A program made the translations under genes and the position numbers. From positions 7,626,001-7,690,000 of the forward strand of contig CM102284.1 of assembly GCA_046563655.1 (NCBI GenBank): a stretch of 64,000 nucleotides of DNA, given 5' to 3'. The stretch is from Yuukianura sp. NJ FZ-2021. Its lineage: Eukaryota. The notes under the pieces were generated by a model that was given only the letters and a program-made list of their open reading frames with translations, did no database searches and had not been told where the DNA came from. This document shows, piece after piece, positions 3,204-48,100 of the stretch (positions within the stretch are counted from its first letter, which is position 1; every line of letters begins with the position of its first letter).

Positions 3204-3371
3204 AGTGAGTGTCGGTTTCTAGCAAGTCGCAGTGTGATTTGCGTTGATTTTTGCGTGTCGTGCAGACTGCTATCCAAAAAGTGGACCCTCTCGATTTTGG
3301 CCGGATGCTATGCGGGGATTATGCGGAACAAAAAGGTTCACCTCTTTTTTCAACTTTTTTGTGACGTCACT
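3204..3371 (+). repeat. Dispersed repeat copy A (about 170 bp), probable transposon remnant
   Basis: AGTGAGTGTCGGTT...TGTCGTGCAGACTGC...TATGCGG.GATTATGCGGAACAAAAAGGTTC...TGACGTCACT recurs in reverse complement at 10881-11054. Confidence 0.8.
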
Positions 3372-3486
3372 CACTTCAACTTTGTAACGTCACTCACTTC
3401 AACTTTGTAACGTCACTCACTTCAACTTTGTAACGTCACTCACTTCAACTTTGTAACGTCACTCACTTCAACTTTGTGACGTCACT
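3361..3486 (+). repeat. 23-bp minisatellite, 5 copies plus a partial
   Basis: Unit GT(A/G)ACGTCACTCACTTCAACTTT starts at 3361, 3384, 3407, 3430 and 3453, with a partial at 3476. Confidence 0.95.
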
Positions 3487-11594: not shown

Positions 11595-13521
11595 ATGGCC
11601 GCCCTTCAACCCGCAGCCACTTCTTACATTCGATCAGGATTGGTAAGTACGATTAATTGGAAGTGAACTTTAGAAAGTACACACAGCTGACTGAGTAGTG
11701 AATGCCGAGATTAATGATTCATTTGATTCTGAATAGGTTCTGAGACAGTGTGGACGGACATATGCAGCAGCAGCTGCTCAACCTAAACATGAAGCGGAAG
11801 GTGAAGCCAGGCCAAAGTTCACGTTGATTCCGAGAGAACCCGTGAAGACGACGTGCGTTGGGACTAACATTACGGTGTCGTCCATTGAAACGAACGGGGC
11901 TGTTGCAAGACTTGCTGTGTTTTTTAGGTTAGCAACAATTCATTATCATTACGAATGGAAGAAGTTGTGTCTTTCGTTACTAAAACGCTGTAATTTCTTT
12001 TACTTTAGGGCTGGATCACGCCACGAACCAGAAGGATCCACTGGTGTCGCCCATGCACTTAGGATTTTCGCTGGTCTTGGAACAACTGGAGCTTCCCAGT
12101 TTGGTATTACACGGAATATTCAACACAAGGGAGGCAACCTTGTGTGTACTTCTGGACGAGAGCACACTGGATACATTCTTGAAGCTACTCGAGATAAGAT
12201 GTAAGGCTAAGGCATGCTAATCAATTTCCAGTGATATTCGAGTTGTTTGAACCTCAATATTCTTTATAGTCATGCATTGGAACCGTTTCTGATCGACACC
12301 TCAACGCACCAAGCCTTCAAGCGATGGGAGCTAGGAGATCACTTGTCTCGCTTGAAGCTGGATCGTATTATCCGCCCACCGGAAGTTCGGTTGCTAGAAC
12401 TTCTTCACAAAGCAGCATTTCGGAACGGACTTGGAAATGCAATGTACACTCCGAAGTACATGGTTGGAAAACATACATCCAAAATGGTCAGTCCTTGACA
12501 TTTTTGGCAACATGAGGAATTAGTTAGATAAATTGAAATATTTTTTATCTACTAGCTACAAAACTTCGTGAACGAGAACTTTGGAATCGCCAGCGTCGTT
12601 GCAATTGGGCTGCCGCATGAACAAGTCGTTGAATTTGCTGGACGACTTACCTTACCGAAGAAGAATGCCGAAATTATACCACAGAGGTACTATGGTGGGC
12701 AGATTCGGAAGGAAAGTGCGGGTGACTTTGCGTATGTCGCCTTGGCCGTGGAAGGAAAAGGGTAATAAGCCAGATTCGTTCAAGTTTGGATCTTGCAAGT
12801 CTGAAATTTTAATTGAAATTGACTTTCATTTGCAGATCCAACAATCCAAAGGACATGATTACTGGAGCCGTAATTCACCGAATGTTGGGATCCGGTCCAC
12901 GCATCAAGTATGGAAACATCAAAGGCGCTCTTCACTTGGCTACGCGAACACCTAAGGAAAGTGTTGCTTCTGGATTCAGCGTTAGTTACACCGATGCTGG
13001 TCTCATCGGGGCATACTTGGTGGCTAGTCCATGCTGCATCGAACTTGTAAGTACTTAACTCATTAATCGATTAATCCTGGCCCTTAACGACTCGTAAGTG
13101 CCCAGGCTTCGACAATTTATGGTTCATTTTTGTTTGCAGGCGACAAAGAAAGCGGCTGAGATCCTTCGAGGTGGTGCACTTAGTGAAGACGATCTAAAAC
13201 GAGCAAAATCTGCGCTGAAGACGGACTTGGCTATTGCACTGGACACTGACGAAAGTCAGCTTGAAGACATGGCTCTACAGAGTCTTCATTACAAGAGAGT
13301 TACACCAGTAGAAGAAATCCAAAAAGTAGTAGACAGTGTTACCCTTGCCGATGTTAAGAAGGTACTTTCATGATGCGCTTAAATTCATTGATTTTTCTTA
13401 GTTTCAACTTGAAACTAAATGTTGACTGTTCATTGACTTTCAGATCCTAGGAGGAGGAAAGTTATCCATGGCATCCTATGGACCTATTTCCAAAGTACCC
13501 TACTTGGATGAACTCCAATAA
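11595..13521 (+). CDS. UQCRC2: Cytochrome bc1 complex core protein 2-like (M16 family, non-catalytic), multi-exon
   Basis: Mitochondrial-type presequence (..RQCGRTYAAAAA), RAGSRHE..GVAHALR, GITRNIQ..GG.L..TSGRE, LELLHKAAFRNGLGN, YYGGQIR, SYTDAGL. C-terminus KLSMASYGPISKVPYLDELQ*. Confidence 0.9.
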
Positions 13522-14098
13522 GCAAACAACTTCCAGTGTTTTAGCACTTCAAAACAATGAAACCACTGCCCCACTTTAGAAATCCCAATTTATCTTAGGG
13601 GTTCGGTTGTAAATTCATCAAAATAATAGCCTAATCTTATGCGCAAAATAAACCAAAACTGTTTACTGATACAACAGGCAGAGAACGGTAAACAATCAAC
13701 GTTTTCATTGCATTTTTGAAGTCCTCAGATGTGGAGCCGTCCTAAAATCCATAAAAATGATGACTCAAAGAGTTATAAAAAAGAACTATTAGATTTATAA
13801 TTTAATTGCAGCTTAGCAGTTTCATCATGAAATTAAAAACGCCTATTGCTTTACTCTTTTCCAACTCAACAAGAGAACTTTTTGCTATTTTTGAAAAGTG
13901 CAAGGATGGATGAGATGAGTCATAGAAGACAGCAATTCACGAAACTTGGATTGACGTAATCGTTATCTGCTTCGTGTCTTATTCGTCTCTCGACTCGTGT
14001 ACTTTACCAAATACATAAGGAAGTTGGCCAACAAGTGGGGTTTGTTGGGGATGGGGTTTTATACTTAGTACGTACTGAATTCGTCCAATCGTCCTTCA

Positions 14099-17019
14099 CA
14101 GACCTCGGCAATTTTCGTTCATTTGTCGCTCCGCTTTACTCAGGTCTCGCTCAGAGCGAAAATTGCTGAGCGGAACGGAACGAGCGTCGAGCCATGCTTA
14201 GCGGAGCGATACTGAGCTGAGGGATAGTTTAGAAGGATGAGCGGAGCGGCCGTTGAGCGAAACGATGGTTTGAAAATGGAGATTACCACGTTGCCATGAC
14301 GACGTCATACGAGCATGCGGATCGAAATAAAAACAAAACATTACACTTTTCTTTGTAGGTCAAGGACCTTCGAATTCACTTCAGTTCACTTCTTCAAGTC
14401 TCTCGGAGAGGACAGTCACATCCTCCCATCGCTCTCTTCAATCTCCAAATTCACTGTTTTTTAAATTCTAAAACTAAAAGTACTTCGTCTCATCGCTCGG
14501 ATAATTCAACATGAGTTGCGGAGGCGGACGTGTAAGTTGTCCTTTGACAACTGATTTACTGGAAACATCAACCTGAACCGCAGGAGGGAATCAAAGGAAT
14601 TGCATAAGCATAACGGTTTCTCATTGTAGGTTTTCGGAGGCGGTGCTGGTTGTGGTGGCTGTCCACAACGCAATCCTTGTTGTGTAACATTTTAATTCAT
14701 TCATCTCGCGAGATCATCGTTTATACGAAGTAACGATTTTTGTGTTTTAGCCTCCACCGTGCTGCCCAGCTCCCAGGTTGACTTTGTGCTGTCCCGATCC
14801 TTGTCGACCCTGCTGCAGACCATGCTGTGTAAGTTACTTTTAAGTAGAATTCTTGGTATATTTTGTATTCTAACTTAACTTATAATTGATACAATTTAAT
14901 TTCTGCCTCTTTTGGTAGCCACCAGCTCCACAATGTTGTCCCAGGATGCCCGTCTTCCCGAAAGTTTGCTGCCCTCCACCAGTAAGTGCACATTTCTTAC
15001 GTTAGACGCGACATTCAAAACAAATCTTTTGATGTGTAAAGCGTTAATGAATGCCCTTCTAAATTCTAGTGCTGTGTAAGACCACACATCCAACTTTCGC
15101 TGGTGTTGGAGTACTTGATGAGGAGATTCGATTTTTGAAAGTATTTATTGCGGTTAGCTGTGCATTTGACTTCGCGTTTTTTTTTGTACTTTAGCCGGAT
15201 CCGTGCATTCGTCCTGGACGAAAATGCTTCATTCCTCCACCTTGCTGGTAACTTATTATTGCAAGTTCTTGGAAAATGGCATATCGCCATCCACTGTTCA
15301 TGTCGTTTATCAGATTTGGTTGTGTATCCTAACGTTTTTCTTCAAATTAAAGTCCACCTCCATGCTGCAAGAAGATGTGCCTAGGTGAGTGACTACAGTT
15401 TATGGAATAGATCGTTTCGTTGACTGTATTTTTTAAAGTTTGACCCAAGTTTTGTTTTAAAATTTTCAGTCGTGTCTCCACCGATTTGTCCGCCAAGATG
15501 CTGTCCAAGTATGTTTCTCAATTTAAAGTTATTGGGATGACATTTTGGCAATTTGCAAATCACTCTGTTAACTTGAATCCTTTCTCATTCTGTAGTTCCT
15601 TGTTGTCCGCCGTGTGGACCTGCCCTGGATCGTAAATACTTGAACATAAAGTTACTGTGGCTTTGATTTGAGATTTCAGTTGTCACTAAAAATTTTGGTG
15701 TATTTCCTTAGCCTGCTGCCCACGACCAGATCCAGTTCCATGTTGCCCGGATCGTAAGTTTAACTTTGTAATAAGATTTCCACTTCAAAAACACTTACAT
15801 ATTTTCTTGTATTCCAGCTTGCCGCCGCCGAACAATGAGCTGTTGCATGGATCCTTGTTGTCGTAAGTTTATTAGCAGCAGTGGAATTAAATTCTTAAGG
15901 TTCCTTATTCCGATTTTTTGAACATACAGCACCGCCAGCCATGATCGTGCGACCGATTCGTCACAGCTGCTGTCCTCCGCCGCCAAGAACTGGAAGAAAT
16001 TGCTGTGTAAGTTTTGAGCTTAAGTGGAGCTTAACCGGAATTAATCAGGATAACATAACACATCTAATGAATCGTAAATGAAGGTAACTAATGCTTGATT
16101 TATTTTAAAATAGCCAATTCCTTGCTGCAACCCCTTGCCGCCTGCCTGCATCATTGTGAAGCCATGCATTCCCCGTTGTGAAGGAAGCGATGTCTGCTGT
16201 CCGGTAAGCAATTAAAAATATACAGCATTTTCTCTAATTTAAGCAAAAGAAATAAGCTTTGTCGTTTGACAGCCGCCACCATTGTCATGCCCGGACCCGT
16301 GTGGATGCAGACCATCTTGCTGTGGAGCTGGCGCATGCCCTGTAACGAATCAATTACATTTCTCTTCCCATTTTTGGGAGTTCCATGACTGATCGTCATA
16401 TTTTTATTTATTTGTAGAAACCAATCTGCGTCAGCATAAAAGCCCCCACAAGCTGTTGTCCATCTCCGTGTTGCCCTCCTCCGCAGCCTCCGATGTGCTG
16501 CATTCCGAAGCCATGCTGCCCGGTAATTGACCTCCGAACTACTCAATTCATTCAAGGATTTCTTAATTACTGAATTGGTTTTACATTATTTTACAGCCCA
16601 AGCAAGAGAATAGCTGCTTCGTGTCAGTTACTCCTTGTCCACCGAAGTGCTGCCCCGGACCGTCGTGCTGCTAAGCCAAGGATTAGACGATGAAGACTGA
16701 AGTTACTCAACGCCACATCTACAAAAACATAGCCAAAGCATTTCTAAATTCATAGTCAAGAATCATTGTTCATTAACGTTAGATCTAGCCGAAAATAAAG
16801 TGTAAGAACTGCACTTGCAGTTGTTTTTTTTTAGGAATATCAAAATTCATGGATAATTTTCAGTTTAACTTCTATTATTACATAGGCCAAAACAGTACAA
16901 ATCTAAATTGTTGTAACTTTTACTTGCCAGAGCTGAGCGGAGGGAGGGTTTGCTGTATTACTTTGAGCGGAGCGGAACGGTGTTGGTGGATGACAGAGCG
17001 GAGCGATCGCCGAGGTCTG
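14099..17019. mobile_element. hAT-like non-autonomous element (11-bp TIRs) enclosing the Cys/Pro-rich gene
   Basis: CAGACCTCGGC at 14099-14109 and its exact reverse complement GCCGAGGTCTG at 17009-17019. CGCTCCGCT/GAGCGGAGCG subterminal repeats at about 14128-14260 and 16930-17005. Flanks GTCCTTCA and GTTCTTCT match 6/8. Confidence 0.6.
14511..16674 (+). CDS. Cys/Pro-rich protein, about 295 aa, 16 exons, no signal peptide
   Basis: Exons 14511-14531, 14630-14683, 14751-14828, 14919-14981, 15070-15075, 15195-15247, 15353-15384, 15470-15508, 15596-15631, 15712-15753, 15818-15862, 15930-16006, 16114-16203, 16273-16341, 16418-16522, 16597-16674. All introns are GT-AG, phases are consistent, and the 888-nt frame is open (MSCGGGR...KCCPGPSCC*). 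AATAAA at 16794. Confidence 0.9.
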
Positions 17020-17497
17020 GTTCTTCTTTAGGAGACTAACCAAGTTTCTTCCTTTCATCCTCACTCGCTCTCACTCCAACCAAACTGGTTCATCAGTTCA
17101 GTTCAGTAAACACTCACTTGACAATTGACCTCAAGACAAGTACGCAAAGAGAGGTTTCGAACAAGTAAGTTTTTTAAGTTGATCTTGGTTTGGTAGGTAT
17201 TAATTAAGTACTGTATCCTGAATCCTATTCTTTCAATCACATCATCGCCTCTAACCTAATCATCTGCTTGTAGTTGTATGAGTAATAATAACCACTGAAG
17301 TAAGGGAGAAACAGTAAACGAACGAAGTAATTCTAACAACAATTGGGAATCGGAATTGATTTTAGATTATCGACTTTTAATCAGTTATGCACGATTGTTA
17401 GATTACTCACGATTGCCGTGTAACAATTGTGGTTTATGTTCTGATAAAGTGTTTATTGACCTTTGACTTTGGTATTTACAGGACACGATTTACAAGG

Positions 17498-18094
17498 ATG
17501 GACAAGAAACCAGAAGTTGGATATGGTCAATACGGCGGTGAGATGCCACCACCTTATACAGCAGCGTATGGACAGCCTGGTCCAGTTGGTTTTGAGCCAC
17601 CACCAAACGTAGCTCCAGTTCCACCACCACCAGGTGGATTCGTCAATGCTCAGTCAATGTATGCCCAACAACAGGCCTATGCTGGTCAACAGGCTCCAAC
17701 AGTGCCAGGTTTGTCGAAATTATCTATTCTAAGTATTAATGGTAATCTTGGTAAATTCGTAACCTATTTCCTGTGTCTAGTTGTCCAAGTCGTCCAGTTT
17801 GCCAACTTGAGAAGCCGTTCAACGCGATTGACTTGTCCTGCATGTCGAGCGGATATCAGCACTCGCGTCAGTTACCGTACTGGGCGCTTCACCCATTTGG
17901 CAGCACTTGTGCTTTGCTTTGTGTTTTGCCCGATTTTCTGCATTCCATACTGCATGGAAGAGTGCCAGGATGCTGAACAGTAAGTGTTTAGTCAATTACT
18001 TCCGAACTTGATTTGTTGCGTGTTGATTAACAATTTATTTGTTAACAGCTACTGCCCGAACTGCCAGCAGTTCATCGGAATCTATCGTCGCTAA
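17498..18094 (+). CDS. LITAF-domain protein (3 coding exons: 17498-17708, 17781-17979, 18049-18094)
   Basis: Pro-rich N-terminus with PPPY motif, then CPACRADISTRV, hydrophobic LAALVLCFVFCPIFCIPYC, and HYCPNCQQFIGIYRR*. This is the CxxC..HxCxxC LITAF signature. Confidence 0.93.
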
Positions 18095-18487: not shown

Positions 18488-18592
18488 CTGATTGGCTGAG
18501 AGGAACAAAGAAACTTGTTTCAAGCATTCTGATTGGTCCTCGAGAACAAAGAAGCTCGTCCCTGATTGGCCGTCTAGGATTTCTTTGTTCTT
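18488..18592. promoter_or_regulatory. Cluster of three CCAAT boxes (as ATTGG) in a degenerate repeat upstream of the filamin-repeat gene
   Basis: CTGATTGG at 18488, 18529 and 18562. The first two are followed by GAACAAAGAA and an inverted TTCTTTGTTC follows the third. The cluster is about 160-260 bp upstream of the ATG at 18747. Confidence 0.5.
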
Positions 18593-18746: not shown

Positions 18747-19809
18747 ATGGCGATGACCCGGGACACTCTTTATGATTCAGCGAACTACTGCGACCAGGAC
18801 CAGAATCAGCGATTTCTCGTCAACAACGAATCGGGCAAGGTACGTAAACGTTTTTACAACGAAATTCTGAAATTATGAAAACATTTTCTGAAATAATCTC
18901 AAAATTTTACTCATTTTACGTTTTGAATTCGTTTCAGGGCTTGTATCCGACACCGCCGCGGTCAACATCTCCAGCAGACTCGTGCCAGGATCCTCCAGCT
19001 CCCGAACTTCAGGAAATCGCTGAACTTGATGAAATCGCTGAACTTCAGGAAATCGCTGAACTCGTGGCCATCCGCCTATCGGATTCCGACATTGGAGTTA
19101 TCCTCCAGGAAATGCAGATTCGTGAGAAAGATTACTCCAGTCTTGCACCGATGGTGGGCGATCGCTGGTTTCAAGGAGAAGGTTTCCCCCTGCCACCTTC
19201 ACCAGAAGTTGACGACGGTTTCTGCGATGGATCCACCAGCTCCGACGACATGTCAACTCCGCCGCTCGCGGTGTCGCCGAAGTTCTTGGATCCCACGGTG
19301 TTCAACTTCCGCGTTGACCCACTGGACTTGCTCCCACCGATGCCTGGCTGCGGTTCTTTTGCTGTGATGGAGTGTGGACTGCTGGGAAGGTTCAAGGTGG
19401 ATCCAAATCGCTTTTCCATCAGGATCTCCACACCATCCGGAGTGCTTCTACGGTGTCAAGTACTGGACATGCGCAACTCCACCGCTTTCGTGTTCATGTC
19501 ACCCGAAGAAGGAATCCATCGTATCTCCGTCTCCTTGAGCGAATTCGTCCACCAGCATATTGACGGGTAAGTTTCCACAAGCTTTTCAATTGACTGAAAA
19601 TTTTGTTATCAAAATCGTTTTTCAAAATTTGGTCAACATTCGTTTGTGTTTTTCGGGAATTAGAGAATCTAACAATTTTTTGTTTGAATTTCAGGAGCCC
19701 CTTCACCATTTACGTCAGGCAGCAACCACGGCTTCTTCCACCAAACTTCGGGATGACCTTTGACCCCAGCAGCAACTACACAACGAAATGGTGTCCGGTG
19801 TGCCCCTGA
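18747..19809 (+). CDS. Orphan protein with acidic/Pro-rich N-region and one filamin-type Ig repeat (exons 18747-18839, 18938-19566, 19695-19809)
   Basis: Phase-compatible GT-AG introns. C-terminal ..ISTPSG..CQVLD..PEEGIHRISV..HIDGSPFTIYV matches the filamin repeat consensus (G.H.I.V...HI.GSPF.V.V). Confidence 0.75.
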
Positions 19810-21058: not shown

Positions 21059-24000
21059 CTACTTGTTCAGCGTATTCTCGTGGAATTCAATGTCACTTCT
21101 GTCCCACCTTCCGAATCTACAAACTGAAAAAAGAGTTTTCAAGGTTTGAAATTTTGAGTGACACAAATTGAATGACTGTGAGATTGAAGATTTACCGAGT
21201 CATCGTTGCAGTGATTTCTAAAGTGGCGGTTTTGGATCGGAAATTTTCAAAAATTTGGATCAAATCATGCCTGCGCAGGAGCTGAGCAACGTCGAGCGCT
21301 GTTTGACCATAAAGGTTTTGCTTGTCAAGCGACGCTCCATTGTCCAAAAGCCATTCAATCGTTGCTTTCGTATTTGCTTCAACAGCCTAAAATCCATCAA
21401 AATTGTAACTTAGGAGAAAGAAAAGTTGTTTAAATTTTGAAAACTGTTTTTTAAAAAGTGAAACGCACGACATGGAGCGGTGACCGTCCACAAGGATCTT
21501 CAAGGTTGAAACTTGCGCCGGCTAGTAAGAACGATTTGAGCCTTGCAACGTCACCTCGACAAGCAGCCCTATTTTCGGAATCAGCTTCTTAAAAAATTTG
21601 ACTTTTGACCTGTTTTCAAAATTTTGAAAACTTACAGATTGAGTTCGGCTGCTAGTGCTTTTGGTTCGATTGTCAAGTGAGCACCACAACGTCGTAGGAT
21701 TCTGATGACATCGTGACGATCAGATTCCACGGCGTCGCGTAACGGCGAAAATCCACGACCATCGCGAATATGCACAGAAGCTCCTCGTTTCAGCAGGAAT
21801 TCCACAACACGATCATCTCCACACGCCACCGCCAGATCTACAACCACCAAAATTTCAAAATTTGAAAACACATTTCCAAAAATTTCAAAAACTAAGCAAT
21901 TTCCATTTTTTATGGGACCAAACTTACGAAGTGGCGTTCTCCCAAAATAGTCGCAAGTGGAAATCTCTGAGCCCTGGGACAAACCGAAAATCAAAAGCAA
22001 TGAAAATTTTGAAAATGGAGAAAGTGAAATTGAACATTTTGAAAAATGAGAGAAAGTAGAATTGAAAATATGGAAACAGGAAAATTTTGAAAAAGGAGAC
22101 AAATTGAAGTTGAAAATTCGGAAAAAGGAGTGAAATTGAGAATGAGAATTTTGAAAAATGCCAAATTTTACCGATTCTCCAAAGATGGCCGTGAGATTCT
22201 TCTCGCTGTAGTTGTGATCTGTGACCTGCGCGAGGAAGGCGCAGGTCAAGGATCCTCCAAGTACCCTCTGAATCTCTTCGATTTCGTCTGGAAGGGACAT
22301 GCCCAGGGTACTTGCAATCAACCGAACTACTTTGTGGACGAGATCTGAACTTTGACCGATGGACAAAACTTCTGAAGGGTCCAAGATGTGGTCCATGCCA
22401 CCTTGAATAGGATTGTAAGGTCTCCTGGATGAGCACTTCGTCAACTCTCCCTTCAAATTTGTCTGAAGCATCTCTCGCTTCTCTTCCAACGACCAATCAG
22501 AACGTCCCAAAACGTAACTTAGTTTAGTCAGTGCAGCTTCTACAAAGATCAGTTGGACATAACATCATCTTTTCAAAATTTTGAACTTTTTCAAAATTTT
22601 GAAAATGCCTTACCTGGAGTCATGTCAAATCCTGGAATGACTCCATAGATTTGTCCAGTTTCGTAAATGGCAGCAACACTTCCGTGCCCGCACTGCGTGC
22701 AGTTGATGATGAGAATGCCGGCGTGAGCGGCTTTTTCAATTTCCTCCAGCAAATCCTTCCGATTGGTTGGAAAATTTCCTGAACCGTAAGTTTGAAGCAC
22801 CACGCCCATAGTTGGAGGTTGCAAAAACACTCGAACCTAAGTGACAACCAATTTCATAAAAATTTAGTTTTTTTTTTTGAAATTTTGAATTGAAACCTAC
22901 TGCTTCCAGAGTAATGGATGGAAAAATTCTGAGCAGTCCAACGTTTCTGTTAAGTGAAGTGTGAATTTGCAGAGCCGAAATGTCTTTAGGCCTGAAAATG
23001 CTGTTGTAATCCACTGAAATGTTGACAATTTTTATAAGTTAGGTTACATTGCAATATTACACCAGTTTAGCTGAATACATGATGGATCAAACAAGTACCT
23101 CGAATCGAAATTCTGAAAATTAAAATCAGACGTTTCAGAAATTTTACGATTAATTCGAGCAAATTTTAATTTTATGATTCACGAAAATGTCTTACCCCAT
23201 TGTAGCCAAGGGTCCAAAATTTGGAGAGTCAAAACCGCTCAAGCTGTCACAACTCACCTGAAATCAAGCAATTCAAAATTCATTCCATTTTGTCAAAAAT
23301 TTCAGAAACTTTTTTTTTTAATACTTTTGTGATTCGATTTCCTCGAAAAAGTTTGTGTCCAAAGTACACCGTGACTTCAGGAATAACGTAAGATCCTGCC
23401 AGGATAAGAGCTCCTAAAATTTTGAGAAAAAGTCAGTTTTAGATCAAAATTTTGAAAAGTACTGTGAAGTGTTTCGTTTTTTTGAAAACTTATTTTTACA
23501 TACCCAGGAAGTTGTCTCTTCCGTCAGATCTGGATTCAAACAAGGGAATTTGAGATCCAGTGATGACCACGGATTTTCCCAAATGCTCCAGCATGAACGA
23601 CAGAGCAGACGCTGTGTACCTTCAAATCAAAATTTAACAATTAACAGCGATTGTAAAATTTCAAAATTTCAAAAATTCTATTTAGTTTTCAAAGATTTTG
23701 AAAATGTGTTAGTAAATTTTGGTAAACTTACGCCATCGTATCTGTCCCATGCAGAACTACAAAGCCGTCGAATTGTTGATAGTTTTCCTACAAGTTTGAA
23801 AATTCTATAAGTTCAAGTTATCAGAGGTGATACAAAGTTTAAAAATATTCAATATTAAATAATTAAAGTTAATTAGCAATTAATTAAATTTGGAAACACA
23901 CTTTGATGTCCCTTGCAACATGAATCCAGTCATCCATGGTCATATTTGTGCTGTCCAGGAGTGGATCATACTCATAGATTGTATAAACAACTCGGAATTT

Positions 24001-26553: not shown

Positions 26554-28155
26554 AAACTATATAAATTTAATTTATTAAACAGAATTCACAAACACCTGCC
26601 TAGGGCAGGTTGAAAAGGTTTAGAGTATATATTGAGAAAAGTTAGAGGTAAAAAATTTCGTCCAATCCTTTCCCCGGGGGAAGAGTGCCAAGGATTGATG
26701 CGGAGTTGCCACGTTGAATGGCGATGCTAATCCGTTGAAGCAAAAAGTTGGTGGATCGGAGTTCACCGGTGACCTCGGCAAGACGTTGACCAATTGACCT
26801 GATGAGAATTAGTCCTTCGGCTCCGAAGACCCCCGAAGTTTCAACAGCAATGATGGAGACGATGAATTGATGATTTAGGTCTTGATACACTTTGTGTTTC
26901 TGCAATTCAGCCAAAGCGGCAGGATAGCCACTTGAAGAAGAGGAAATGGAGAGGTACGAGTTGGCATAAGTGTCTCGGCAAGTGACGTCCCACACCAAAC
27001 AACGTCCAGTATTCCAAGGAATCAAAGTGATGCCGTCGGGGCGTTTTCCATCAGAACGAGAACAACCTGGAGGTTCTTTCAGGCTAGGGACTCCGGCTGT
27101 TTGAAAGGCTCGAGCAATAATATCGTTGATTGAACCATGTCTTGAGTGTCTTCCTGCACTTTTCGGACAACTCAGCCCGTGGAGACCGTCTTCGTTAACA
27201 GTTGCACCACAGCGACATTTGTGGGGTAGACATAAGTTGGTGCCAAGCCGCAAGGAGCACGAAATTCTGAAGCATTCGTTGGATAGAAGAGTCCCCAGTT
27301 GTGAAGAGGGTAGGGCCTTCAGCCAATCACCGGAATGAGCAGCAGCGGCAGCAATTAGTCTTGCTTTGTCAGTCAAAGTGGTGGAGTTGTTCAGCAGACT
27401 GGTGTAAATTTTCGATGACTTTAATATCTCCCATTCCTTCTGAACTTTGTGATTAGATGGAAAATCAAAATCGTTGGACCATTTGAAAGTTGCTAAGTCG
27501 TACGATGGATCGAAAGGCGATAGGTTACCAGGTAGGAAGGAGGTGATTAGGTCTGCGCAGCTAAAGATTGAAGCCAAAAAACAGAGCGTAGCGCAATCGT
27601 TAGCTTGGCGGATTCCCAAACCCCCTTGCGCCACCGGCAGAGATGTTTGAATCCAGGCATTTTCAGAAAGGCTTATGTTGAGAATTTTTTCCAAAACTTT
27701 ACGAAGAGAATCATCGTAGTCCTTCAGTAGGTCTTCTTCAAGAAATGAAGGTGCGCAGCGAAGGAAGTATGTCAGTCTTGGAATCGAAATTGAAGCTCTT
27801 AGTAAGAAGAAAGCCACGTGAGCCGGAAGAGCTAGCAGCTTAGACGAAAGTCTGTCGAAATCGTCGGTCTTAATCTTCAAAATTCGTCGTCCAGAAGCTT
27901 TGGATAATGGGGCTCCGAGTAGTTCGGCGTCTTCTTCATTGCAGACTCGTATATCAGGTGCGAACGAAAGAAATGAGCTAGTGATGGCTCTGGACTCCAT
28001 TTCATCGCCACCGATGACGATGATCTCACATTTCTGTGTGTTAAGTTGTAGGCCAAAAGATGCTGCGTTGGTGGTGATATGCTGCAGATACTTCAGGACT
28101 GTTTCCGGCTTGTCGGCTATGGTTGCGTCGTCGAGATACCATACGTTAAACTCTG
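26554..28155 (-). mobile_element. 5'-truncated CRE-like non-LTR retrotransposon (RT C-terminal half, Zn-knuckle and restriction-like endonuclease)
   Basis: Open frame 28155-26642 with WYLDD, GLQLN..KCE, LLGAP, SLPV.QGGLG, CRC..HGLSC, RH..IN, RPDG, WDVT, K..VY, AVETSG, QRGN. Candidate TSD AAATTTCGAAAAT at 26541-26553 and 28156-28168. Confidence 0.9.
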
Positions 28156-28923
28156 AAATTTCGAAAATTGTTTTAGATTTTTGAGAAATGAAGATCCGTA
28201 ACGAAGCGAGTCTTCCGGCGGCGGCAGAAATCGCTAAAAACTTGAATATTTTAAAGTTTTGTTGGAAAAAATTCCTTTTTTGTTTTGCTAAACGCCAGTT
28301 GAAAGTTAAACGCATTTAGTCTATGTATTTAATACAAAGGCACAATGTCTAAAATTTTTTATTTTTTATGTGACGTACAAGTTCTTTCGGCATTCTATTT
28401 TCCTCGACGTTTTTATTTAGTTCAGCGTATATTATTGTTGAATTAGTTAAGAAACATTGACTAAATACAATGAAAAAGTTCACGTATGAGTTAATAAACT
28501 TAATGAAACTTAAGCATGTAAAATGTGTGTGAAATTGAAAATTATTTAGTTCATGTTGCAATTTGATTCTTAATTCAATTGAATTGAATGGTAATTGCAA
28601 GATGCTGAGAGTCCAAAGTGTTAAACTTTGTTTTTGAAAAGATTGAATCAAAAATCATTCATATTTGGTCACCACATCATCATTTTTAGCAGACGCAAAA
28701 AATAGCTGTACCGTGTACGCTTGTTATCAGTAACAGAATTGATGATGTTGACATGTTTTGGGTGGCCTGACGAAAGCCAATGACATTCATTTAATATAGG
28801 AAGAGCTTACTATTATTCATACATTCAAGTTGTAAGTTCTAATCGGTTCTAGAAAGGTCAAACGTCAAGGAAAACTTGGTGCTTAAAAGTTGTTTACTTT
28901 TGGAACCTCGTGGACTGGATCAT

Positions 28924-34585: not shown

Positions 34586-35395
34586 TTACCCTCTGAATTT
34601 GTGTGGTTGGAAGTAGCAGTTACTGCACACCACCCTTGTCACCCACTCTGATTTTGAACTGAAGTTTAACATTGGGGGATAGGCAGAAGAGAAGAAAAGT
34701 TGAAAGGAGATTATGCGAAGCAGGAAGGCTACACTCCCTTCCCTATCCTTACCCTCTGAATTTGTGTGGTTGGAGTAGGAGTTACTGCACACCACCCTTG
34801 TCACCCACTCTAACTGAAGTTTAACATTGGGGGATAGGCAGAAGAGAGGAAAAGTTGAAAGGAGATTATGCGAAGCAGGAAGGCTACACTCCCTTCCCTA
34901 TCCTTACCCTCTGAATTTGTGTGGTTGGAGTAGGAGTTACTGCACACCACCCTTGTCACCCACGCTGATTTTGAACTGAAGTTTAACATTGGGGGATAGG
35001 CAGAAGAGAGGAAAAGTTGAAAGGAGATTATGCGAAGCAGGAAGGCTACACTCCCTTCCCTATCCTTACCCTCTGAATTTGTGTGTTTGGAGTAGGAGTT
35101 ACTGCACACCACCCTTGTCACCCACTCTGATTTTGAACTGAAGTTTAACATTGGGGGATAGGCAGAAGACAGGAAAAGTTGCCAGGAGATTATGCGAAGC
35201 AGGAAGGCTACACTCCCTTCCCTATCCTTACCCTCTGAATTTGTGTGGTTGGAGTAGCAGTTACTGCACACCACCCTTGTCACCCACTCTCATTTTGAAC
35301 TAAAGTTTAACATTGGGGAATAGGCACAAGAGAGGAAAAGTTGACAGGAGATTATGCGAAGCAAGAAGGCTCCCTCCCTTTTTTCCTATTCTTTT
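34586..35395. repeat. 162-bp tandem repeat array, about 5 copies
   Basis: Anchor TACTGCACACCACCCTTGTCACCC at 34621, 34783, 34938, 35100 and 35262 (spacings 162, 155, 162, 162). Units are nearly identical. Confidence 0.97.
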
Positions 35396-45126: not shown

Positions 45127-48100
45127 TTAGTACCCGCCTTGTGGATTTGGGTTATAATGCATCTGTTGTTGACCCGGTCCACGCATTCCCATTTGGTGTT
45201 GCTGCTGCATCATCATCTGCTGTCTCATGCGTTGCTGCGGTCCTTGACCCATCATGCCGGGTTGCTGTTGACCTTGGGTCATCATGCCTTGTTGCCCCTG
45301 ACCCATCATTCCAGGTTGTTGCTGACCTTGACCCATCATTCCAGGCTGCTGCTGACCCATCATTCCAGGTTGTTGTTGACCTTGCCCCATCATGCCAGCT
45401 TGCTGTTGACCCATCATGCCCGGTTGCTGACCTTGCCCCATCATTCCAGATTGCGGTTGGCCTTGCCCCATCATTCCAGATTGCTGTTGGCCTTGACCCA
45501 TCATTCCAGATTGCTGTTGACCCTGATTCATTATTCCAGGTTGCTGCTGACCTTGGCCCATCATCACTTGTTGCTGTGCCCCTTGACCCATCATTCCTGC
45601 TTGCTGCCCCATTTGATTCATTCCACCCATCCCTTGCTGAACTCCGACCATTTGACCCGGTTGACCTTGCCCCATTTGTCCTAAAAATTATAAAATACAT
45701 CAGTATATTACATATTATATAGTACATATGTATTAAAATTTAGTAATGTGTAATTTAGTAACTGATGTGTAATTGTGATAACTCACCTTGCCCTTGAACC
45801 ATTTGACCTTGCATTTGACCCGTCATATTCCCTTGTGACATTTGACCCGGCATGTTGGGTCTCCCGTAAGCCGCTTGCATAGGCCCGCCCATCCCTTGCT
45901 GTTGTTGTGGTCCTCCTTGCATGAACTGTGCATTTCCCCTTGGTCCCATCGGTCTATTTCCTGCTCCCCCGAAATTCATGTCCTGTTGACCCGGTCCACG
46001 GGGCCCGCCCATCATCTGCATTTGACCTGGTTGTTGTTGTGGATTCATCATAGGTCCAGCTCCTTGTTGGACAGGGACAAGACCAGGAGTCGGCTGTTGC
46101 CCAGGGCCCATTCCTCCCATGCCCGCTTGATTGTTGTAACCATAATTCTGGTTCATTCCTAACAAAACATAATGCTTCTTTTAGAAAATCCAGTTCCAGA
46201 TCCAATTCTTAAAAATGAGGAAGTTAGAAGAACGCTAAAAACGTTAGTAAAAACGTAATTATTTGCTAGATACCCTGAGATTGTTGCATTTGTTGCTGTT
46301 GTTGTTGCATCATGGCAGCATTCGGCGGTCCTGCTTGGAATCCAGCTTGTCCAGGATTGGGCATTTGCCCTGGCGGAGGTTGTTGCTGACCACCGGGACC
46401 CTTCAACTGTTGACGAAGAATTCCAGGACCATGTCTAGGCCCTGCACCTCCAGGGCCCCCCGGAGGCCCTTGAGGAAACTGTTGAAACTGGTTTGGCCCA
46501 CCAGGAGGTACAGTTCGAGCTCTTAGGAGATTGTGCAGTGCTGCTTTTGGTGATTGGTTTATCCTGGGTCCAGGCGGCACTATAAAACAAAACAAGGTTT
46601 TCAAAAGTTTTTCACAAATTGTTAAATAATTTCAAAATTTTGAATTTTGAGTTACCTTGACCAGGTTGTGGTGGATAGTAAGGTTGTTGCGGAGGTTGTT
46701 GTTGTGGTGGCTGCTGCTGGGGCTGTCCATTGTAACCCCATTGGGGTGGTCCACCTTGATAGTTTGGCGGCGGCGGTTGATTTCCAGTCGGTCCTCCGGC
46801 CATTGGATTGTGCGGTCCACCAGGAAACTGTCCGCTCTGAATTTCATCATTTACAACTTTCATTTAGAATATCATTTAGAAATTGAGAATTTAGATTTCC
46901 GAATCTAAAATGCAACTTAAATGCAGAAGTTTTCATTTCCTAAGTTCAAAATCTAGAGAATTAACAAAAGAATGGCTTACTCCAAGTTGGGTTCCAATCG
47001 CAGGCGGATTTTGAATTGGAACATGCTGCTGCTGCTGTTGTTGCTGTTGAGCTTGCGCGGCAGCTGCTTGTGCCTGGGCTATTTTCTGTTGTTCCTGTTG
47101 CGCCTTCGTGAGTCGTTTCTTCCTGGGTAGTTTCGGTTTTGTCACTTTCGGAATCGGACCTCTCGGGCTCTGATCCGACATCATGGAAATAGGAGTGTCC
47201 GGTTTCAGATTAATTTCTTCTCGAATGTGAACTTCCGGTTTGAGGTCAATTTCTTCCGGTGGAAGAGGAACTGGTTCTAAAAAGTGCGTAAATGGTTTGA
47301 CCATGTTATGCGTATGAAACTTATTGAGACGATGAGCTTCTTCATAGCGAAGTGGCTTGCGTTCCATCTTGACAGCTCCGAACCACGACCATGACAGCGG
47401 AGCTGGATGTCGCTGACATTCCAGAATTTCCCAAGGACTTACTCGCTGTTTCTCCCAAACTTGAAGGCCCTAGTAAAGAGTAAAACCATCTTTAAATTTA
47501 AAACAAGTAAGAGCACTGGAAAATGGGGAAATCGCTGATTCTGGACAAAAAGCATGAAAAAGACATAGCATCTTTGGATAGAACGAAATTTTGAGAAAGT
47601 ATTTTGAAATTTACTCACCGGCTTTTTGTCAACATATTCAAAAGACTGGACACGATTCCCTTTGGAGTCGACAATAGTTGACGTCGACTGCGTGACAACA
47701 ATTTCCGCAAAAACTCTTGAAAATGGGAGGAGTTGACGCAGGGGTTTGATTGATTCTGAATCTCTATCGGTTAATTCCTTCTTCAATTTCTTGATTAAGT
47801 TCAAATTCTGTTTTCTGACTTCCTCCACACGATCACCAGCTTCTGTCACTTGAGTCGAGTGGACCAACGCTGTCACCATGTCCACAACGGTGAAGAAAAC
47901 GTCACTGAAAAGTTAATCAAAGCATATGTCAATATTATACCAGACAAAATTCAGTTCGAGATTTGTCATTGATGGCACAAACAAAACAATGATATGGTTT
48001 CTGAGTTCCGTTCAACCAATCAACGGGCAGCATTCAAAACCTGACAGAATCCAGCTCGACCAATTAAAATCGATGGTTGGAATGAAAAATCTGCAAACCT

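Follow-up and report, generated by a model that had tools for sequence, protein, structure and literature searches.

A predicted multi-exon Cys/Pro-rich gene between two related transposon-like segments in a springtail: two insertions or one gene-carrying element?

Genes of the locus

The DNA analysed here, which we refer to as the window, is a stretch of 64 kb from Yuukianura sp. In it a UQCRC2-like gene, a Cys/Pro-rich gene and a LITAF-like gene follow one another on the plus strand, separated by spacers of about 710 bp (UQCRC2-Cys/Pro) and about 275 bp (Cys/Pro-LITAF). The visible coding part of the UQCRC2-like neighbour lies at 11737-13522, with a stop near 13520 and an AATAAA at 13647. 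It hosts a Peptidase_M16 domain (Pfam, 11737-12201) and its best named match is 'Cytochrome b-c1 complex subunit 2'. The best UQCRC2 matches reach 61% (an unnamed JGI protein) and 47% (Orchesella dallaii), and housekeeping proteins of the nearest annotated relatives show 47-71% identity. The LITAF-like downstream neighbour (17093-18094) has an ATG near 17498 and a zf-LITAF-like domain at 17402-17980 (Pfam). TCAGT is the arthropod-type initiator consensus; three copies occupy 17093-17107, 74 bp beyond the right terminus described below, and the LITAF-like gene probably starts near 17093.

The Cys/Pro-rich gene has its coding region at 14511-16674 on the plus strand, which our splice model divides into 16 exons encoding a predicted protein of 295 aa. 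The model runs from an ATG at 14511 to a stop at 16672-16674, with 15 introns that are all GT-AG and 64-119 bp in length. The smallest modelled exon has 6 nt (15070-15075), and the reading frame is open only after splicing. The model was predicted from sequence alone and favoured Cys and Pro codons by design; the resulting protein is 29.5% Pro and 25.1% Cys, with CCP-type repeats. Downstream of the stop, the sole AATAAA in 16675-17019 is a poly(A) signal at 16794-16799 (plus strand). Upstream of the gene, a sequence scan gives a palindrome, TGACGACGTCA (14297-14307), which we take to resemble a CRE, and a plus-strand TCAGT at 14381-14385 that is the only such pentamer between the left repeat segment and the ATG. 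This is a candidate arthropod-type initiator, and the gene probably starts near 14381. An initial annotation of this DNA had placed a complete Cys/Pro gene with a poly(A) signal between two transposon ends, and the predicted 16-exon model and the AATAAA at 16794 agree with this.

The searches for homologues of this gene used single contiguous exons as queries, not the spliced protein. The 35-aa exon had 0 matches among 1.84 billion protein representatives, Pfam gave 0 families on six exons, and a 51-aa frame (exon 15 with intron read-through), compared with longer proteins only, yielded two candidates, none of which scored. The Atlas holds composition-level look-alikes at 0.85 or below, the nearest for one exon being 'keratin-associated protein 5-8-like' at 0.85, short of the 0.9 at which a match becomes more than a lead. 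As the queries are short and of low complexity, these blank searches are weak evidence. In composition the predicted protein is like the keratin-associated proteins, with 25% Cys, 29.5% Pro and CCP-type repeats. Sperm mitochondrial capsule and sperm tail proteins are also Cys/Pro-rich, a likeness by composition only. However, Pfam on six exons and the two protein searches assigned it to no sequence family.

No paralogue or parental copy of the Cys/Pro gene was found by tblastn in the 64 kb, i.e. in 14 kb upstream and 47 kb downstream. Ten of the 61 tblastn segments match outside the gene, all at 45.1-46.5 kb, and this apparent paralogue was rejected as the antisense of a Gln/Gly/Met-rich repeat adjoining Med12. 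The window was also scanned for transposase families with Pfam. None was found in 126 of its 199 reading frames of at least 75 aa, the other 73 having been dropped from the scan as alternative-frame overlaps.

Termini, subterminal motifs and flanks

The sequence CAGACCTCGGC lies at 14099-14109 on the plus strand, and its reverse complement occupies 17009-17019; with up to one mismatch allowed, the window has no further match. If one mismatch is accepted, the inverted repeat becomes 14 nt long, which gives a left terminal inverted repeat at 14099-14112 (plus strand) and a right one at 17006-17019 (minus strand), as found by inverted-repeat pairing and the terminus search. The initial annotation had the right terminal sequence correct, while its coordinate, 17019, is the end and not the start of the terminus. 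Consensus hAT termini have a YARNG-type start. The terminus here begins CAGAC, of which the first four positions fit this consensus and the fifth (C, not G) does not.

Just inside both termini we find clusters of the short motif GAGCGGAGCG. With up to one mismatch it has 11 matches in the window, nine of which fall within 14127-14248 and 16930-17005, all within 150 bp of the termini; the remaining two, at 27584 and 39978, stand single. Shuffled sequences averaged 1.0 matches and never had more than 4, with 0 of 100 reaching 11. Repeated short subterminal motifs near both ends are a feature of hAT elements, and a binding role for those found here is putative.

The 8-bp sequences flanking the termini are a candidate target-site duplication: GTCCTTCA on the left (14091-14098) and GTTCTTCT on the right (17020-17027) match at 6/8 positions. 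A match this good or better is found in 432 of 61063 8-mer pairs of equal spacing (0.7%), and in 7 of 993 and 3 of 991 local controls (0.3-0.8%). When flank lengths of 2-11 bp are compared, 8 bp is the best; 11 bp gives 6/11 and the others 0-3 matches. The flank match is imperfect, whereas the termini are identical at 11/11 positions. The hAT target-site consensus is nTnnnnAn; both flanks have the T at position 2 but carry C at position 7. Direct sequence checks uphold the termini, the GAGCGGAGCG-type subterminal repeats and the 6/8 flanks that had been reported at the outset.

An 11-bp inverted repeat with 6/8 flanks is, on its own, not rare in this window. There are 344 perfect inverted-repeat pairs of at least 11 bp that lie 100-5000 bp apart, six of which have 8-bp flanks matching at 6/8 or better, and one or more such pairs turned up in 9 of 30 shuffled windows. 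We judge the terminus pair to be real because of the motif clusters and the significant segment-to-segment alignments described below. Judging from their sequence, both ends belong to one TIR-transposon family with subterminal repeats and are homologous to each other.

Two related repeat segments

The left repeat segment (14099-14272, plus strand) consists of the terminus, a minus-strand GAGCGGAGCG-type motif at 14127-14136 identified by the motif search, a hairpin spacer and then a run of plus-strand units. Unit alignment places these as D (14167-14182), S (14199-14210), X (14211-14237) and D' (14238-14253). In the right repeat segment (16928-17019, plus strand), delimited by motif and alignment searches, every motif is on the plus strand; unit X comes first (about 16932), then D (16964-16979) and S (16996-17007), and last the terminus. 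Counting motifs, the left segment has a single minus-strand copy followed by three plus-strand ones, and all five in the right segment are plus-strand; the arrays have a periodicity of about 71 bp. In its inner half the left segment is thus polarised like a right end.

The two segments are directly alignable. A local alignment of 14167-14210 with 16964-17007 scores 31 (shuffles 15.2 +/- 2.6, with 0 of 300 reaching it), and unit D matches at 15/16 positions and unit S at 11/12. An inverted alignment between the segments scores 23, again reached by 0 of 300 shuffles. The nhmmer matches are weak both ways (14171-14254 against right-segment positions 6-84, E = 0.45; reciprocal E = 0.8). Homology between the two segments is thereby shown, and so are how each is built and where it lies with respect to the genes. 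D' closes the left array and X opens the right one; joined together, the two would make up an almost continuous periodic D-S-X array.

The left segment holds internal inverted repeats. As DNA it folds with -31.9 kcal/mol (z = -2.15, matched by 4 of 200 shuffles), its own two ends pairing with each other. The right segment is without a hairpin (z = +1.51, matched by 190 of 200 shuffles). In sequence, the left segment looks like a whole small MITE with its inner end decayed or truncated, and the right segment looks like the right half of a MITE.

Neither segment has an inverted-repeat pair of termini of its own. The best ungapped match for an inner terminus is 7/11 in the left segment and 8/11, at 16928, in the right, and 596 of 1890 random 280-bp blocks contain a match of 8/11 or better. 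In gapped tests, 399 of 862 and 757 of 814 control blocks scored at least as high. The candidate inner termini had been thought poor from the start, and both kinds of score bear this out, being at chance level. Nor does either segment have a good target-site duplication of its own: if the left one ends at 14272, its flanks (GTCCTTCA and AAAATGGA) match at 2/8 positions, and if the right one starts at 16928, its flanks match at 4/8.

Further copies were sought in the 64-kb window with blastn-short (word size 7) and nhmmer --max and none was found; a terminus with up to two mismatches and a nearby motif likewise gave nothing beyond the two segments. No Rfam family matches 13500-17600 at E up to 1, and Tandem Repeats Finder leaves the motif arrays uncalled at a score of 50. 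One combined terminus and motif match among bacterial and archaeal genomes lies in a Polyangiales MAG of 71-78% GC and was discarded as a chance match. The periodic arrays suggested a foldback-type element, which was rejected: 9-bp flanks match at 3/9 and the end arrays are direct, not inverted.

Two insertions or one element

We lean towards two separate MITE insertions on either side of a resident Cys/Pro gene, a tentative reading to which we give somewhat less than an even chance. On this view a single non-autonomous TIR transposon (MITE) family would have contributed both ends as separate copies: the left one (14099-14272) would be almost complete apart from a decayed inner end, and the right one (16928-17019) would be a right half. 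Members of this family would have an 11-14-bp terminus beginning CAG and, inside it, a periodic GAGCGGAGCG-type array repeating about every 71 bp. Ac transposase binds AAACGG repeats, and by analogy the GAGCGGAGCG-type motifs are putative binding sites that a transposase may recognize. Two short promoter-proximal spacers that follow one another, UQCRC2-Cys/Pro and Cys/Pro-LITAF, would each have received, or retained, one copy in a compact springtail-like genome. The Cys/Pro gene would be a resident of the locus that only appears enclosed, insertions persisting in spacers and spacers alternating with genes. The two segments would thus have been inserted independently, and the 6/8 flank similarity would have arisen by chance, possibly aided by a target-site preference.

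We favour two insertions because of the motif polarity of the left segment, its direct colinearity with the right segment and its hairpin. Their position argues the same way, since both segments sit in short spacers upstream of candidate initiators, the left (14099-14272) before the TCAGT at 14381 and the right (16928-17019) before that at 17093. The spacers are so short that any pair of spacer insertions within 3 kb of each other would have a single complete gene between them. Terminal inverted repeats with 6/8 flanks also occur in six of the 344 inverted-repeat pairs of the window, as noted above. Finally, the gene has no paralogue in the 64 kb, compared with the 56.9% of animal Pack-TIRs that lie within 15 kb of their parent (PMC8277862).

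Several observations count against two insertions. The outer flanks match at 6/8 at exactly the hAT length, as do 0.7% of control pairs. The inner termini are at chance level and the outer ones perfect, so both copies would need to have lost their inner ends. If the left segment is a whole MITE reaching 14272, it lacks a duplication, its flanks matching at 2/8. The joined arrays nearly continue D-S-X, as if a single element had broken inside its array. The family is also not visibly dense, with two copies in 64 kb.

A single gene-carrying element of 2921 bp is a possibility that we rate at about one in three. Slightly more doubtful is the fuller claim of a hAT-like non-autonomous springtail element that carries an intact 16-exon gene complete with promoter and poly(A) signal, as a composite or a gap-repair-filled MITE. 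One element is supported by the 6/8 flank match and by the lack of an inner terminus above chance, and the flank match is the one piece of evidence specific to it. From this match we obtain a back-of-envelope likelihood ratio of about 7, given 11/11 termini beside a 25%-diverged duplication, and a target-site preference would lower it further. The internal, non-transposon sequence would be 2655 bp (14273-16927), with the common 11-nt terminus on both flanking pieces. Given a hairpin-like left segment whose inner half is colinear with the right one, however, the layout is that of a whole small MITE beside half a MITE, which argues against one simple element.

How could such an element arise? 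One unlikely route is a composite transposon (macrotransposon), in which two defective MITEs and the gene moved as a 2921-bp unit into the UQCRC2-LITAF spacer. The donor MITEs would have kept only their outer good termini, which a hAT-type transposase would have used, leaving one 8-bp duplication. This agrees with perfect outer and chance-level inner termini, with the 6/8 outer flanks and with a hairpin-like left segment that lacks a duplication (2/8). A cargo of exactly one complete gene is what two spacer insertions at the donor locus would lead us to expect. Moreover, excising the 2921 bp with one flank copy brings the CCAAT at 14085 to about 80 bp upstream of the LITAF TCAGT cluster, a usual distance from CCAAT to initiator. 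Two-terminus transposition by nearby hAT elements is reported for maize Ac/Ds (PMC4270019, PMC9910405). Against this, the prior is low, and no fixed animal event of such kind was found in the literature. A duplication diverged at 2/8 positions sits uneasily beside 11/11 termini, which we estimate would, at such a divergence, escape mismatch with a probability of roughly 0.06. In addition, the 64-kb window holds no second copy or donor locus, and hAT is a candidate superfamily assignment.

The other route, which we consider less probable again, is a single-copy Pack-TIR made by gap filling. Here the UQCRC2-LITAF spacer would have contained one MITE, about 290 bp long and flanked by one 8-bp duplication, which broke inside its array; repair would then have copied about 2.65 kb from the Cys/Pro gene elsewhere into the gap. 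The 6/8 flanks and the lack of inner termini fit this, as do the arrays: joining D-S-X-D' on the left to X-D-S on the right leaves them short of only about one S unit. Animal Pack-TIRs are mostly single-copy, have lost little of the transposon (median 4.6%) and tend to have internal, possibly fragile, breakpoints (PMC8277862). But a filler of 2.65 kb taken at random would seldom include an entire 2.4-kb transcription unit plus promoter and poly(A) signal, by our estimate in a few per cent of cases. The parental copy is also absent from the 14 kb upstream and 47 kb downstream, against the 56.9% within 15 kb in that survey (PMC8277862), and the left segment shows signs of self-completeness.

It is very improbable that these are not transposon ends at all and that the GAGCGGAGCG arrays are homologous promoter modules, e.g. 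zinc-finger factor sites, of two adjacent co-oriented genes: both plus-strand arrays do have the same orientation, about 90-215 bp upstream of the downstream gene's TCAGT, but the two arrays have their 11-14-nt inverted termini on opposite sides, as in transposon ends, not in the same place with respect to each gene, and no other candidate promoter region of the window has a motif cluster, the matches at 27584 and 39978 being single.

Comparison with known systems

The choice between these readings matters for what the locus can teach us. One element would mean the relocation or duplication by a DNA transposon of a complete, functional multi-exon gene in an arthropod. It would be a whole-gene Pack-type element, where the known animal Pack-TIRs mostly carry fragments, and a concrete case for how whole genes move individually between loci. 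Two insertions, the reading we prefer, would be ordinary MITE build-up in the promoter-proximal spacers of a compact genome, and the value of the locus would be limited to a new MITE family and a candidate transposase-binding motif.

The initial annotation overstated the novelty of a Pack-type element in an animal, since a 2021 survey (Tan et al.) catalogued 370 Pack-TIRs in 100 animal genomes, 208 of them associated with hAT, the commonest class. Most of these elements are single-copy, their origin is explained by gap filling, and the largest human example is 3585 bp; the insect reference genomes that the survey covered yielded no Pack-TIR. A Pack-TIR is defined there by 100-5000 bp of internal sequence between two terminal-covering pieces of the same TIR element, termini matching the family consensus, and a unique parental copy of at least 90% identity without transposon flanks. 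The present locus, if it is one element, would be like the animal Pack-TIRs in having 100-5000 bp of non-transposon sequence between two related pieces (PMC8277862 throughout).

Comparisons also come from maize. The Ds2/Ds-like elements (Ac/Ds, hAT) are alike in their 11-bp termini and subterminal motifs, and have 8-bp duplications and unrelated filler DNA (PMC3260210). Ds filler DNA is occasionally copied from genes, and the Ac subterminal motifs are transposase-binding sites (PMC3260210). However, the Ds filler consists of gene fragments (e.g. two exons), whereas here there is a complete 16-exon gene with promoter and poly(A) signal (PMC3260210). The motif and terminus sequences are unrelated to those of Ds, and the candidate duplication here matches at only 6/8. 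The alternative transposition and macrotransposons of maize Ac/fAc were observed experimentally with an active transposase, and here are only a possible history. A hAT of Pseudocercospora fijiensis with a captured histone H3 gene carries a host gene sequence as cargo, but that cargo was amplified, whereas the window holds one intact copy (PMC6710886).

Termini, flanks and subterminal motifs

The 11-nt terminus CAGACCTCGGC lies at 14099-14109 and its reverse complement at 17009-17019. A search of the 64-kb window that tolerated one mismatch found no further copy, and the inverted repeat reaches 14 nt if one mismatch is accepted. For the motif GAGCGGAGCG, with at most one mismatch, the window contains 11 matches, a count reached in none of 100 shuffles (mean 1.0); nine of them cluster just inside the two termini, no more than about 150 bp away. 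The outer 8-bp flanks, GTCCTTCA and GTTCTTCT, are identical at 6/8 positions; among lengths of 2 to 11 the 8-bp comparison matches best, with length 11 giving 6/11. Perfect inverted-repeat pairs of at least 11 bp, 100-5000 bp apart, number 344 in the window, and in six the 8-bp flanks agree at 6/8 or better. At least one pair with such flanks appeared in 9/30 shuffled windows. Taken alone, the inverted repeat with its 6/8 flanks is not above chance. The sequence observations of the initial annotation (inverted termini, subterminal motifs, 6/8 flanks, the enclosed gene and its neighbours) are all borne out.

Anatomy of the two segments

The pieces that carry the termini are a left segment at about 14099-14272 and a right segment at about 16928-17019. 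Aligned directly, 14099-14280 and 16915-17019 score 31 (shuffles 15.2 +/- 2.6), and in inverted orientation 23 (shuffles 14.1 +/- 2.1), scores that 0/300 shuffles reach in either case. Lying beyond all shuffles in both orientations, these alignments place the segments in one repeat family with a common terminus and, together with the motif clusters, indicate that the pair of ends is real. The same evidence, with 300 shuffles for each alignment, supports the transposon-end identity that had been proposed for both segments.

The left segment has a single minus-strand motif at 14127, followed by plus-strand motifs at 14168, 14199 and 14239; the five in the right segment are all on the plus strand. 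The plus-strand parts share the units D (14167-14182 and 16964-16979, 15/16 identical), S (14199-14210 and 16996-17007, 11/12) and X (14211-14237 and about 16932-16955). The units run D-S-X-D' in the left segment and X-D-S-terminus in the right; D recurs as D' after 71 nt, which makes the array periodic. In direct orientation, nhmmer weakly aligns the whole right segment with 14171-14254 (E = 0.45; reciprocal 0.8). Folded as single-stranded DNA, the left segment forms a hairpin in which its two ends pair with each other (-31.9 kcal/mol, z = -2.15, equalled by 4/200 shuffles); the right segment has no such fold (z = +1.51). Because of the motif orientation, the unit order and a hairpin found only on the left, the left segment appears to be organised as a complete small MITE would be, and the right segment as a right half.

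We sought an inner terminus above chance in both segments and found none. On the left the best ungapped match is 7/11, on the right 8/11 (at 16928), and 596/1890 random 280-bp blocks hold a match of at least 8/11; the candidate inner termini had already been described as poor. In gapped tests the control blocks were equal or better in 399/862 and 757/814 cases. On visual inspection, 14256-14272 looks like an S unit with the final six bases of the terminus after it, given a 6-nt deletion; the likeness was noticed post hoc, and we estimate it as borderline (about 0.04-0.17). Neither segment has an 8-bp duplication of its own (flanks 2/8 left, 4/8 right).

One element or two

The initial annotation proposed 14099-17019 as a candidate Pack-type element. 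We tentatively favour two separate insertions flanking a resident gene, the Cys/Pro-rich gene between the segments, and consider a single gene-carrying element somewhat less likely. Upstream, the UQCRC2-like gene has its stop near 13520 and an AATAAA at 13647; the downstream neighbour is a LITAF-like gene. The pentamer TCAGT, a candidate arthropod-type initiator, occurs only once between the left segment and the ATG of the Cys/Pro gene, at 14381, and three times at 17093-17107, between the right terminus (74 bp away) and the LITAF 5′ exon. If TCAGT marks initiators, the two segments occupy spacers close to promoters, about 710 and 275 bp long. Where a genome is this compact and insertions are kept only in spacers, two of them 3 kb apart must enclose exactly one complete gene. 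That a gene is enclosed entire, together with its promoter and poly(A) signal, is expected under independent insertion and would be rare under random-breakpoint capture, so that the complete cargo counts against one element.

A single mobile or filled unit spanning both ends is possible; as a composite it seems unlikely, and as a gap-filled element a little more so. The outer flanks match at 6/8, a level that 432 of 61063 equally spaced pairs reach (local controls 7/993 and 3/991), the outer termini are perfect while inner ones are absent, the left segment lacks its own duplication, and the left and right arrays would join nearly in phase. A CCAAT box lies at 14085-14089, 10 bp outside the left terminus. 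With 14099-17019 and one flank copy removed, some 80 bp would separate it from the LITAF TCAGT cluster downstream, a weak hint at a single insertion into the LITAF promoter. However, the left segment appears self-contained, given its hairpin and nhmmer alignment, and the window holds no Cys/Pro paralogue. The duplication would also have diverged at 2/8 positions beside termini identical at 11/11, and we therefore estimate a joint likelihood only about 7-fold in favour of a true duplication over chance. Some insect hAT elements prefer targets beginning with GT; such a preference in this family would lower that figure. Same-family fragment pairs are far commoner than true Pack-TIRs, which are put at about 2 per 10,000 TIR elements in animals (PMC8277862). 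The last reading, that the GAGCGGAGCG-type arrays are promoter modules and not a transposon, is highly improbable. A small share of the probability falls to none of these readings.

Gene-carrying TIR elements in animals were already described before this locus. One survey gives 370 Pack-TIRs in 100 genomes, 208 of them hAT-associated, mostly single-copy and ascribed to gap filling, and reports none in the insect reference genomes it examined (PMC8277862). Accounts also exist of maize hAT elements with gene-derived filler (PMC3260210), of a fungal hAT element with a captured histone H3 (PMC6710886) and of transposition in maize via the termini of two nearby hAT elements (PMC4270019, PMC9910405). 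One element here, if true, would be notable for a complete multi-exon gene as cargo in an arthropod.

Superfamily and mechanism

The family is hAT-like in its CAG-starting terminus, subterminal repeats and candidate 8-bp duplication. Its membership of the superfamily is putative and unproven, since the hAT target pattern nTnnnnAn is broken in the flanks at position 7 and 8-bp duplications are also made by P-type elements. Among the 126 of 199 window reading frames scanned, no transposase was found. Under every transposon reading the family would be a non-autonomous TIR element. A transposase supplied in trans would recognise the 11-14-nt termini and the periodic GAGCGGAGCG-type motifs, by analogy with Ds, whose 11-bp termini and AAACGG repeats are described as being used by Ac transposase (PMC3260210).

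The Cys/Pro gene and its neighbourhood

Our splice model was built by dynamic programming over GT-AG introns, with a reward for Cys and Pro codons, and predicts a coding region at 14511-16674 with 16 exons and 295 aa (29.5% Pro, 25.1% Cys); an AATAAA lies at 16794. The model includes a 6-nt micro-exon at 15070-15075, two Cys codons between AG and GT; the frame is preserved if it is skipped, giving 15 or 16 exons for the gene. Single short exons as queries, a weak test, detected neither a Pfam family nor a homologue; one exon has a composition-level likeness to keratin-associated proteins (0.85). No N-terminal hydrophobic stretch is evident in the translated model. Judging from composition, we would guess, with low confidence, at a disulphide-cross-linked structural protein. 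The perfect palindrome TGACGACGTCA, which resembles a CRE, lies at 14297-14307, some 80 bp ahead of the candidate start site.

The tblastn search for paralogues in the window placed 10/61 segments outside the gene, all antisense to a Gln-rich repeat, and we rejected these matches, at 45.1-46.5 kb, as spurious products of antisense frames. The minus-strand region 45127-46863 carries long Gln/Gly/Met/Pro-rich repeats with a 30/54-bp period, adjoins Med12 exons and is probably Med12's Gln-rich tail.

The window is gene-dense and ordinary in content, with genes for a succinyl-CoA ligase-like ATP-grasp protein, a Kv channel, UQCRC2, LITAF, asparaginase/ankyrin, NSRP1, a Sel1-repeat protein, a CAAX protease, RING proteins, Med12 and an M1 aminopeptidase. 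The UQCRC2-like gene encodes a Peptidase_M16 domain, and its best named match is 'Cytochrome b-c1 complex subunit 2' of the springtail Orchesella dallaii (47%). A Zmpste24-like frame matches best, among named proteins, those of Allacma fusca (71%) and Folsomia candida (67%), both springtails, and next that of a damselfly (62%). Judging from these matches, the window probably derives from a springtail. At 18491-18569 there are three ATTGG (inverted CCAAT) boxes, each inside CTGATTGG and 33-41 bp apart, upstream of an unannotated plus-strand frame (18848-19567) with no Pfam family; the trio suggests a promoter under the control of CCAAT-box factors. An uninterrupted minus-strand frame of 557 aa at 26645-28315 likewise has no Pfam family. 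Tandem repeats occur at 3358-3486 (23 bp, 5.6 copies, 98% identity, in a region without a Pfam match), at 22001-22158 (AT-rich, 32/48-bp, in the asparaginase/ankyrin gene region and probably intronic) and at 34586-35380 (162 bp, 5.0 copies, 94% identity), the last overlapping a minus-strand frame with a weak DUF5731 match.
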